A stretch of DNA of 64,000 nt from a virus (Duplodnaviria; Heunggongvirae; Uroviricota; Caudoviricetes): the IMG/VR virus record IMGVR_UViG_2778260994_000001; one strand, given 5' to 3'. Shown one piece after another: positions 34,075 through 36,854 of this stretch. A program made the position numbers and the translations under genes. A model generated the notes under the pieces. The model was not told where the DNA came from, did not search any database, and saw only the letters and a list, made by a program, of their open reading frames with translations. How positions within the stretch are numbered: the stretch's first letter is position 1; each line of letters starts with the position of its first letter.

Positions 34075-34647
34075 ATGCCTAATCGCATTCCTCTCGATCC
34101 TGTATTGCCCAAAAATTTTGACTGCACTCCTAACGAGAAACGCTCTAAAGCTCAGCTGGACGCCTGGTGGGACCATCCCTATGGGGTTACAGAACATGAC
34201 GGGAAAATTGTTGTTTATTGTCTGAATGGTGGCGCGTGGGACCGTCCATCCGTGCTTGGTTTGGCAAATAACTATGATGAAGCCTGTGAACTTGCCGAAA
34301 GACAGCAGGCTAGATGGGTGAAAACACGGTCACAGCCGACATTCATGTTTTCAAAAGAACCGCCATTTATACTGGCGAGGATGCCGCAGCGACCGGATCA
34401 TCAACAAGAAATTGTTGCTGAATTTTCCTCAAGGGATGAGATGAATCTCTTCTCATTAAAGCAGGAAGAAAGGGAGCGCGTCGAAGTGCCTCCAACTCTC
34501 GACCACAACCGGATGAACCTGGCCCAACTCGCCTGGTACAGCAAAGAATTAGAGATGTCTATTGCCCGACTTGAAAACGAAAAAGCCGCTATCCAAGCCC
34601 AGCATGAAGCTGTCATTGCCAGGATACGAGAAGTTCAAAACGGTTAA
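34075..34647 (+). CDS. Lxr-like protein
   Basis: 190 aa between humD and hot; position only. Confidence 0.4.
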   Translation: MPNRIPLDPVLPKNFDCTPNEKRSKAQLDAWWDHPYGVTEHDGKIVVYCLNGGAWDRPSVLGLANNYDEACELAERQQARWVKTRSQPTFMFSKEPPFILARMPQRPDHQQEIVAEFSSRDEMNLFSLKQEERERVEVPPTLDHNRMNLAQLAWYSKELEMSIARLENEKAAIQAQHEAVIARIREVQNG

Positions 34648-34653
34648 CTACCG

Positions 34654-34917
34654 CTATTTCTTTACGGCATCATCTTTCTGATATGCCGGATCGCTCCCTT
34701 TTGGCAACTGGAGGCTTAACTGCCGGTAGTGCCGTAGCCGTTCCATGAAATAGGTGCGCAGATTCTCTGGTTGCTCGCGGGCTACCTGTTCAGCTATGAC
34801 AGGTATGTTCAATCGCTCTTTGTACGCCACACCGCTGGCAGCCAGATCAACGTTAACCTTATCCCGTTCTTCCTGACTTTTAGCTGCAATATTCCAATCG
34901 TACATATCAAATCCCAT
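34654..34917 (-). CDS. hot: Hot, homolog of DNA polymerase III theta subunit
   Basis: [36 protein letters not shown] matches HolE-like sequence. Confidence 0.8.
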
Positions 34918-35354
34918 CCAGAATAATTGAGTAACGACTATTATTTAACCAGCAAAGTAACTTTTAATTTTTTTTCTTCTCCCATTGATTTTTGTGCACA
35001 GCTTATCTGCCTTGCCGTGCGCAGAATCAACTTTTTTCTTCCTGATTTATCCACAAAGTTATGCACTTGCAAGAGGGCCATTTTCTAAATATTGTGATGT
35101 TTCACAAATGAAATGAATTTTGATTAATGAAGATAAGGAGAAAATTTGAGATGCAATCATGACGTTAATAGATAGGGTCTGCATTACAGACCCCACCCGC
35201 ATCAAGGAATTAGCCGTTCCCTGATGTTGTTCCGAAAACATGTGCCGTAAGCTCACGTTAACGACTTTCTTTCACCGAATCCAACTATATAAGGGTTGGG
35301 TTTCTACGTCAACGTGAGCAAGTGCTCCTTTACATTTGACAAGGAACCACCTTA

Positions 35355-35492
35355 ATGACTGCTTTTTTTCAGTTCCTGAGTGCATTTTTAGATGCGCCTG
35401 TTATTAGCCAGATTCTGGCTATTATCCTCATCATCGTTTTGATTTTGCTTTTAAGGTCAGTAAAAAATGGAATTATGCACTGGCTTACTTAA
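35355..35492 (+). CDS. Candidate small hydrophobic peptide (45 aa), below the ORF-track cutoff
   Basis: MTAFFQFLSAFLDAPVISQILAIILIIVLILLLRSVKNGIMHWLT; AAGGAA upstream; stop overlaps a perfect 9-bp-arm palindrome. Confidence 0.3.
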   Translation: MTAFFQFLSAFLDAPVISQILAIILIIVLILLLRSVKNGIMHWLT

Positions 35493-35567
35493 TGTTTCAG
35501 TGAAACATTAAAATCTCCTTGATGTGGAAACAATCATTTTCTGTATGTGCTGGTGGGTACCTGTAGT

Positions 35568-35918
35568 TCAGCTTTCGTTGGCATTTAACTTCGTCTTTGC
35601 TTTCTCCACCAGCAACTTCCAGATGCCTATTTCATTAGCAGCCGCCTTGATGGCGGCATAAAAAGCATCTTGCTGATCGTAACGCTGAATCTGTTTTTTC
35701 AGTTTTGCCTCCACCAATTTAATTTCATTACGTGCTTTCTGAAGCCGCCGCGCCGCCCGGTTACGTCTGTTCTTGTATAGCGCGTTAATCTCTGACAATT
35801 GCTTTAATTTACCAGCCTGACTGCGGATTATCGCCTCTCTGACTTCTGCCGTGCGTCTCATCTGATCTCTTAAGAGTTCACCGTTTTCGATAATTCTTTC
35901 AAGGTGTTTGATGTGCAA
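35568..35918 (-). CDS. Hypothetical basic coiled-coil protein
   Basis: 116-aa ORF. Confidence 0.45.
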   Translation of the reverse strand: MHIKHLERIIENGELLRDQMRRTAEVREAIIRSQAGKLKQLSEINALYKNRRNRAARRLQKARNEIKLVEAKLKKQIQRYDQQDAFYAAIKAAANEIGIWKLLVEKAKTKLNANES

Positions 35919-35921
35919 CTC

Positions 35922-36854
35922 TCATACTTCACCCTCGCTTGTATCGCCAGCATCCACCAACGGCAATAAAGCCATGGCCATCTTATGAACCAACAGAGCA
36001 TCGATAATGCCAAGCGTATGCCCCGGCTTAATGTTTAATGCCGCCTCAAGGTGACACCTTTCTAGGTCACTTTTCTCGGCTTGTTTATGATGATCTGGCG
36101 TAATAACGTCGCCCAAAACACGGCTAATTCTTTCTCGTAATTGCTGGGTGCCAGCACACTTGACCGCTGTATCGTGGAGGCGGTTAACCAGTTCGCGATA
36201 AACATGCGGCTTAATTCGGATACGTTCACCGGGGACGCCCTTTCCTTTCGCTGGCACCGAACTATCCGGAATGTCCGGATAGTTGCCAGCCTCGTAAGCT
36301 ACCCGCAGCCAGTGCATGAATGTTTCAGTGGACACACAACCACAGTCCACATCGATTTTCCCGCGTTGCTGTTCCAGCCATTGCCCAAAATCCAACCTGT
36401 AAGTCTTACTTTCAAGTTCATCACCATTGAACTCGACTTTCTGCGACGCTATGAGAGCTGATTCGTATTGTTCGCGAGTGACAACTGACTGGTATTCATC
36501 GCTATCAAGGTCACCAATTGGAAGCTCAATCTCACAACAAAAATTGCGCCCAAAGAAAGTGTCTTTTTTGTGGTCTGAGCCAAAAGCAAAAGTCGCGCAT
36601 GGTGCCATTAAATTGACACTGGGTAGGTAACAATAACTCATTCCATCAGGCCACCCGCCGCACTTAGGCAGCTCCTTCACTAACAAGTCGATAAGCTTCA
36701 TTTTTTTATCATCTTTGCAAGCCGCCAAAGCCATTTGGGCAAGTGCCAATACTTCATCTGCCGTATATCCAGCACCGTGACCATACATTTCGATACGGGA
36801 AATAGTCTCTGATATACGCTCTTCAGTGATTCTGGTCATTTCTTTTTGCGCCAT
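35922..36854 (-). CDS. Hypothetical protein
   Basis: 310-aa ORF with ATG start. Confidence 0.5.
   Translation of the reverse strand: MAQKEMTRITEERISETISRIEMYGHGAGYTADEVLALAQMALAACKDDKKMKLIDLLVKELPKCGGWPDGMSYCYLPSVNLMAPCATFAFGSDHKKDTFFGRNFCCEIELPIGDLDSDEYQSVVTREQYESALIASQKVEFNGDELESKTYRLDFGQWLEQQRGKIDVDCGCVSTETFMHWLRVAYEAGNYPDIPDSSVPAKGKGVPGERIRIKPHVYRELVNRLHDTAVKCAGTQQLRERISRVLGDVITPDHHKQAEKSDLERCHLEAALNIKPGHTLGIIDALLVHKMAMALLPLVDAGDTSEGEV

Follow-up and report, generated by a model that had tools for sequence, protein, structure and literature searches.

What does the 650-bp stretch between hot and pmgV of bacteriophage P1 encode, and from which strand is it read? The window, a viral DNA stretch of 64,000 nucleotides, is bacteriophage P1 with 99.6% identity to AF234172/NC_005856, and its plus strand is the reverse complement of that record. 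In AF234172 the minus strand of the interval is annotated with upfM, upfN, upfO and LPhot together with three predicted sigma-70 promoters. The original prediction saw no convincing gene here apart from a plus-strand ORF of 45 codons. This ORF is indeed absent from the P1 record, but the record does place the three upf genes and LPhot on the opposite strand. The ORF call itself is already in RefSeq, where PGAP lists it as hypothetical protein WP_000123562.1 in many P1-like plasmids, and it is J46_0085 in the annotation of phage SJ46. The region is dispensable for lytic growth (PMC10695390). The literature that we searched on upfM/N/O, P1 transcriptomes, the nrdA-like promoter and WP_000123562 contained no functional data, and neither a functional description nor a family assignment nor a cassette architecture was given there for the ORF.

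Our answer is a tentative one: we favour, at somewhat less than an even chance, a cassette in which a small membrane peptide would be controlled by an antisense RNA following type I toxin-antitoxin (TA) logic, with a captured DnaA-box promoter upstream. The support is computational throughout and consists of sequence features, the pattern of conservation, predicted folds and the homology to nrdA. Table 1 lists the features of the locus.

Table 1. Features of the hot-pmgV interval and its neighbours in window coordinates.
Feature	Position	Strand	Remark
hot, DNA polymerase III theta-subunit homologue	34654-34917	minus	left neighbour of the interval
LPhot (former LP91), Lpa-dependent late promoter	34940-34963	minus	AF234172 and M95666; inside the interval, outside the cassette
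upfO	34941-35081	minus	P1 record annotation
Segment homologous to E. coli K-12 nrdA upstream region (ypaB side)	34971-35085	plus	82% identity over 115 bp, NC_000913
Two DnaA boxes: TTATCCACA (35047-35055), TTATGCACT (35059-35067)	35047-35067	plus	first box perfect consensus
upfN	35059-35256	minus	P1 record annotation
Putative promoter: TTGCAA (35067-35072), 17-nt spacer, TATTGT (35090-35095)	35067-35095	plus	alignment with nrdA promoter
Conserved strong Shine-Dalgarno (SD) AAGGAG (35135-35140), mini-ORF ATG (35151), 21-codon uORF (35159-35224)	35135-35224	plus	
Candidate antisense RNA, three hairpins	35160-35277	minus	start about 35276; 3' end undefined
Hairpins of candidate antisense RNA	SL1 35264-35232; SL2 35226-35200; SL3 35198-35170	minus	
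Most conserved block	35234-35319		3 differences in 86 nt, P1-type vs L003-type
13-nt inverted repeat with inner 10-bp hairpin (35277-35286 with 35294-35303)	35251-35319	plus	pairing analysis
upfM	35272-35385	minus	P1 record annotation
Sigma-70-like promoter: TTGACG (35312-35307), 17 nt, TATAGT (35289-35284)	35284-35312	minus	10/12 consensus
SD AAGGAA of 45-codon ORF	35341-35346	plus	8 nt before ATG
45-codon ORF, predicted single-pass membrane peptide MTAFFQFLSAFLDAPVISQILAIILIIVLILLLRSVKNGIMHWLT	35355-35492	plus	translation; 79/79 loci
Perfect palindrome, 11-nt arms	35489-35511		overlaps TAA stop of 45-codon ORF
pmgV	35568-35918	minus	right neighbour of the interval

Phage and plasmid collections, E. 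coli genomes, IMG/VR and metagenomes were searched for relatives. Across these collections the region is confined to P1-like phage-plasmids of Escherichia, Salmonella and Shigella, and 216 of 5426 complete E. coli genomes, about 4%, carry it. All conservation counts below refer to 79 retrieved loci. The collections together hold three allele classes, namely P1-type, P7/SJ46-type, with about 96% identity to P1-type across leader and ORF, and L003-type (e.g. CP057172), the divergent allele with about 78% identity to P1-type overall; the IMG/VR and metagenome scans yielded no class beyond these three, which limits the depth of covariation and dN/dS analysis. An exact leader 19-mer had three matches in GTDB genomes, all in unrelated bacteria, and these were discarded as chance.

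The cassette, about 34950-35555, persists while the neighbours on either side get exchanged. To its left hot and lxr are replaced in the P7/SJ46-type, and to its right the type I restriction gene hsdM stands in place of pmgV-pmgT in the L003-type. NZ_CP019075.1 and CP057172.1 have a mosaic neighbourhood, and some P1-like plasmids are without lxr, so that hot adjoins humD. At the 5' end of pmgV (window about 35918-35925), the P1 copy in the window is without 5 bp (GATCT, including a GATC site) when compared with AF234172; the annotated ATG is therefore frameshifted, and the longest ORF, starting from TTG, has 116 aa instead of 120 aa.

We consider first the possibility that the reference annotation is right, with upfM, upfN and upfO as real genes and the plus-strand ORF as noise. 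The three are annotated in AF234172/NC_005856 and are oriented like pmgT-pmgV and hot. However, indels in the P7/SJ46-type, the L003-type or both disrupt each of them. These indels are of 1 bp at 35127, 35225 and 35345, while 19 bp are inserted close to 35117 and upfO has lost 2 bp. PGAP calls none of the three and no family was matched, and the upfO N-terminus is nothing but the opposite strand of the DnaA boxes and matches E. coli ypaB. From this pattern the three upf genes are probably spurious, and we regard the annotation as hardly credible at this locus.

The plus-strand ORF behaves differently. It encodes exactly the 45 aa of the original prediction, with the AAGGAA ribosome-binding site where expected, and the predicted product resembles the small (<60 aa) hydrophobic peptides of type I TA systems in its length, in an 18-residue hydrophobic core and in the SD placed 8 nt upstream. 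Conservation across P1-like genomes had been proposed as a check, and the reading frame is conserved in all 79 loci, with start and stop identical in the 78 that are not interrupted by IS1. In the divergent allele the SD is GAGGA at the unchanged 8-nt spacing despite many changes in the surrounding 20 nt. The L003-type peptide, MIVFFQFLSAFLNAPVLSQVLAIVFIVVLIWFFKSVINRGVRWLI, has 60% identity to the P1-type with zero indels, at a nucleotide identity of 78%, and all nine substitutions in the predicted transmembrane (TM) segment are hydrophobic-to-hydrophobic. The ORF also diverges less than its flanks: 31 of its 138 positions differ (about 22%), whereas the flanks differ at about 35% (P = 7e-4).

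The statistical evidence that the ORF is coding is nevertheless no more than suggestive, and selection is not significant. The ORF has a pS of 0.36, near the flank divergence, and a pN of 0.19, giving a dN/dS of 0.45, yet some other frames score equally well. When 31 random substitutions were simulated, the ORF stayed intact in 17% of the runs. In BLOSUM conservation its frame is the best of the six, but with P = 0.08, and shuffling the 650-nt region produces an ATG-initiated frame of 45 aa or more behind an SD-like motif 5% of the time. Comparison of the peptide with Pfam, PHROGs, NCBIfam and PADLOC returned no significant match, the best being phrog_1184 (E = 0.056, function unassigned). Searches of two protein collections, of 5.8 billion and 1.84 billion sequences, returned just frameshifted or IS1-truncated copies of the same peptide, and these protein collections held no homologue outside P1-like elements.

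These results bear directly on an explanation in which no plus-strand protein is made. The ORF would then be fortuitous in T-rich DNA, where hydrophobic codons arise by default, and what is conserved would be the convergent promoters, DnaA binding and a non-coding RNA. The non-significant coding tests agree with it, as do the lower conservation of the ORF relative to the leader, the lack of homologues elsewhere in the collections searched, and the IS1 insertions tolerated in nature at the ORF 3' end. It accounts less well for a frame kept in every locus and free of indels, for an SD retained through many local changes, for the reduced divergence relative to the flanks and for nine TM substitutions that all keep hydrophobicity; moreover, independent gene callers predict the ORF, and a conserved promoter aims at it. 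We judge this explanation unlikely.

Several other observations were made within the ORF. An insertion interrupts its 3' end in two or more independent alleles, of which one is P1-type and another L003-type (sites in locus L082 at about 2616, in protein P0003 and in NZ_AP026785.1); the inserted sequence begins ATGACTCCAACTTATTGATAGTG, which we take to be an IS1 end. In both alleles the C-terminal tail becomes ...VMTPTY and the TM segment remains intact. A near-perfect palindrome lies at 35402-35424 (TATTAGCCAGA / TCTGGCTATTA, 10/11), and in each of the three alleles a conserved hairpin at 35380-35397 was marked as resembling a plus-strand terminator. Within the ORF a further minus-strand promoter (35500-35472, 9/12) was considered and rejected, as it is not conserved.

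The strongest signal of the locus is found in the leader, where the block 35234-35319 is far more conserved than the ORF. Between P1-type and L003-type its identity is 96.5% (binomial P = 8e-13 versus the flank rate and 9e-7 versus the ORF rate), compared with 44-66% in the variable stretches, 78% in the ORF and 88% in 35128-35224. The block holds a near-consensus minus-strand promoter whose hexamers and spacing are identical in 79/79 loci, and which is the predicted PupfN of the P1 record. Folding of the leader, another check suggested at the outset, predicts hairpins on both strands. The candidate antisense RNA has a minimum free energy of -43.2 kcal/mol (z = -4.5), and 0 of 200 shuffles were as stable; the plus-strand fold of the same stretch reaches -30.0 kcal/mol (z = -2.8). 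Many pairs of the candidate RNA are G.U on the minus strand and would be C.A mismatches if the plus strand were folded. Substitutions of the L003-type either spare the stems of the hairpins, lying in loops and linkers, or preserve pairing by compensation (U:A to C:G at 35178/35190, GGGUCUG/CAGACCC), although the covariation support amounts to one event because only three allele classes exist.

The opposite preference is found to the right of the predicted antisense start. The 13-nt inverted repeat that had been pointed out is present at 35251-35263 and 35307-35319 with 12/13 positions complementary, and its right arm overlaps the -35 of the minus-strand promoter. In the hairpin inside it (35277-35303), 10/10 positions pair if the plus strand is folded, some of them as G.U, whereas the minus strand, which has no G.U pairs there, reaches 7/10. 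G.U pairs of this plus-strand-specific kind are restricted to the part right of the antisense start, where solely plus-strand RNA would exist. This strand asymmetry in the predicted pairing fits a sense/antisense RNA pair. The predicted antisense RNA would be perfectly complementary to the uORF part of the leader, and it has no overlap with the SD and AUG of the ORF. Both strands of 34500-36100 were also searched against Rfam (E <= 10), which gave noise only, the best scores being 14-18 bits to unrelated families. Homology of the leader to dinQ/agrB or to an IncFIB-plasmid module was looked for, none was found, and the idea was rejected.

On the other hand, the same promoter and structured RNA might serve hot, as a lysogenic sigma-70 promoter followed by a long 5' leader, an assignment that we hold to be rather unlikely. 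The DnaA boxes and the convergent nrdA-type promoter would then modulate hot by roadblock or transcriptional interference, and the ORF, if expressed, would be a harmless accessory membrane protein without antisense control. The terminator scan bears on this point, as it found no canonical terminator after SL3, nor any between 35277 and the start of hot at 34917, so the transcript may run on into hot. The P1 record already predicts PupfN upstream of hot, and hot is adjacent in both the P1-type and the L003-type. Furthermore, hot is reportedly expressed in lysogens as well as late, which would require some sigma-70 promoter, and the block would explain this expression if the assignment to hot were true. 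Nevertheless, the P7/SJ46-type keeps the promoter and hairpins unchanged although hot is missing on that side and no convincing minus-strand gene follows. In RCS47, hot is preceded by no more than about 30 nt and the block is missing altogether; hot can thus do without it. The stretch between the hairpins and hot is also poorly conserved (45-78% identity).

Returning to the antisense-controlled cassette, the 5' part of the leader shows how the RNA might act at a distance from the peptide start. The mini-ORF reads MQS* in P1 and ATG-TAA in the divergent allele, and it overlaps the uORF; its SD and ATG are invariant. The uORF stays open, and its changes are mostly non-synonymous, two of them being a compensatory hairpin pair, so the uORF peptide sequence is not the conserved thing. 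The uORF start region (35148-35160) can pair over 13 nt with the start codon region of the ORF (35355-35367), with 11/13 pairs in P1 and 13/13 in the divergent allele. All four substitutions keep or gain pairs; this pairing was noticed post hoc. SD sequestration by 35229-35233, which is predicted in P1, was dropped since it is not conserved in the divergent allele.

The putative plus-strand promoter is derived from the host. Homology to the E. coli nrdA upstream region spans the DnaA boxes, the -35 and the spacer, and ends at ...CATTTTC just before the nrdA -10. The P7/SJ46-type segment (1100-1230 of locus L006) has 94.6% identity to E. coli K-12 over 130 bp, compared with 82% in P1 and 77% in the L003-type, and this high value suggests recent recombination between phage-plasmid and host chromosome at the site. 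Parts of this are already on record: in M95666 the window's plus strand bears the annotation 'nrdA-like promoter' together with a DnaA box, and AF234172 mentions E. coli DNA with two DnaA boxes to which the sequence is 94% identical. Both boxes are found in 77/79 loci, and the remaining two extracts end short of the site. The hexamer at the -10 position is not that of nrdA; it reads TAYTGT, with unchanged spacing, in each of the three allele classes. Our promoter scan missed this promoter because it matches only 8/12 of the consensus. Transcription would start near 35102, and the promoter points at the leader and ORF. The interval contains neither a C1 operator nor a LexA box; with no C1 operator nearby, expression of the ORF in lysogens is possible.

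The palindromes had been given a prominent place in the original prediction. The one overlapping the stop codon is real and even longer than described, with 11-bp arms (TTAATGTTTCA at 35489-35499 and TGAAACATTAA at 35501-35511), though it had been placed about one nucleotide off. It is rarer than chance, as 0.075 palindromes with 11-bp arms are expected per 64 kb of shuffled sequence. However, one T is missing in 28/79 loci, and the L003-type has no palindrome. A role as intrinsic terminator was rejected, for the stem is A/T-rich, neither strand has a U tract and the structure is bulged or absent in other alleles; it was likewise rejected as a C1, LexA or DnaA site. The related half-palindrome at 35094-35113 shares the 8-mer ATGTTTCA with the palindrome but nothing more, and it differs in every allele class. 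Because neither is conserved, both are probably incidental to the cassette.

Two further observations concern similar elements. A second perfect palindrome with 11-nt arms lies at 36260-36284 of the window inside pmgT (AACTATCCGGA-ATG-TCCGGATAGTT). Close behind pmgV, the minus strand at 35497-35520 holds a strong SD and after it the three-codon mini-ORF AAGGAGATTTTAATGTTTCACTGA, whose ATG sits within the stop-codon palindrome; the arrangement mirrors the plus-strand SD and mini-ORF at 35135-35162, and each of the two mini-ORF SDs is complementary to the strand partner of the other (UCUCCUU at 35514-35520).

Taken together, the proposed cassette would be self-contained and kept by P1-family phage-plasmids despite the exchange of its neighbours. 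The promoter fragment derived from host nrdA, with its two DnaA boxes, would fire rightwards; the resulting mRNA would have some 250 nt of leader, starting with the conserved SD and mini-ORF/uORF and containing several hairpins. At the end of this leader the ORF, with its own SD, would be translated into a single-pass membrane peptide. The near-consensus promoter within the leader would fire the opposite way and produce the highly structured antisense RNA, which, if abundant, would pair with the leader and leave the peptide mRNA untranslated or unstable. Synthesis of the peptide might then be limited to times when the DnaA-controlled nrdA-type promoter outpaces the antisense one. Translation of the uORF could open the ORF start via the 13-nt pairing, a hok/mok/sok-like coupling at a distance. 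The resemblance to type I toxin or small membrane protein loci that had been suggested is thus partly supported, by the predicted TM-peptide ORF, the structured and conserved leader and the opposing promoter, which would give an antisense RNA, but not by the palindromes, which are not conserved, nor by any match to a known toxin or antitoxin family, and coding selection is not statistically demonstrated.

A more far-reaching version, which we think quite improbable, is that the locus is a second, unrecognised post-segregational or stress-killing module beside phd/doc in P1, and hence a new type I toxin family. Silencing would here too be due to the cis-antisense RNA, via the uORF together with long-distance pairing at the start of what would be a toxin. 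Under that version the captured nrdA promoter would make the toxin mRNA sensitive to DnaA and replication stress, and the behaviour of the prophage-plasmid would be tied to the replication status of its host.

Few phages are used as widely or annotated as well as P1. Should the cassette work as we propose, the reference annotation of upfM/N/O would be wrong here, and P1 would have a conserved gene for a small membrane peptide that is controlled by antisense RNA, with its expression timed by a captured host promoter with DnaA boxes. This host-derived promoter would be the unusual feature of the cassette, which would constitute a new type I-like family and link host replication status to prophage-plasmid physiology.

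A comparable slot exists in IncFIB phage-plasmids of about 111 kb (NZ_MG825385.1, locus L086, 1860-2700), where the humD-pmg slot holds the same nrdA-like DnaA-box promoter. After the promoter, an RNA of about 80 nt would end at a strong bidirectional terminator at 2204-2240. A convergent sRNA candidate of about 85 nt matches the AgrB model weakly (27.6 bits, below threshold), and through its 5' end it is complementary to TAAGTATCTGGCGACT (2447-2462), which precedes a hydrophobic ORF of 27 aa, MVNLLFKIVPPMFAIIKAIIEYVNQRP. The module looks like a dinQ/agrB-style type I TA candidate. It has no homology to the P1 cassette, and by analogy it would lend positional support to the idea that the slot hosts type I-like modules.

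Type I models in Rfam include IstR, AgrB, Rdl, Sib, OhsC, OrzO, SymR and ryfA/TimP. Among the Rfam type I toxin and antitoxin families, nothing came near the gathering score on either strand of 34500-36100, and the comparison with known systems is therefore one of architecture. With the E. coli nrdAB promoter, the cassette shares 115-130 bp of homology that takes in the -35, its spacer and the pair of DnaA boxes, and relative to the downstream transcript the orientation agrees. The homology ends before the -10, and the leader and ORF that the putative P1 promoter would drive are unrelated to nrdA; NrdR boxes are found in the nrdA leader, to which the P1 sequence has no homology. In tisB/istR-1 and dinQ/agrB of E. 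coli, which are stress-induced and have long, inhibitory 5' UTRs, a stress- or replication-linked promoter likewise lies about 250 nt ahead of the hydrophobic peptide ORF, and as in those systems the RNA antagonist in P1 would bind far upstream of the ribosome-binding site. The P1 cassette also adjoins the LexA-controlled genes lxr and humD. The differences are that the P1 antagonist would be fully cis-antisense and not divergently encoded with short complementarity, that the P1 promoter is of the DnaA-box/nrdA type and not LexA-controlled, and that there is no homology. Among the small regulatory or accessory membrane proteins of prophages and bacteria, TimP/TimR of Salmonella has no sequence relationship to the P1 cassette, but both have a peptide, a predicted one in P1, of less than 50 aa with a single TM helix and a basic C-terminal tail, and an antisense RNA partner, likewise a candidate in P1.

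A close parallel in organization may be hok/mok/sok of plasmid R1. By sequence or profile P1 resembles neither Hok nor Sok nor other Rfam families: no Pfam, NCBIfam or PHROG match would place it in Hok/Gef-Sok, and the Rfam hits are noise. The P1 antisense RNA is also without a clear terminator, and the P1 uORF does not overlap the ORF, so any coupling must work through the long-range pairing, unlike in hok/mok/sok. In both, however, a small membrane peptide ORF lies behind a long structured leader, and a strong antisense promoter in that leader would give a structured RNA that overlaps an upstream frame and not the toxin start. Both may also share a dependence of the toxin ORF on translation of the upstream frame, and, like R1, the carrier in P1 is a low-copy plasmid, here a prophage.
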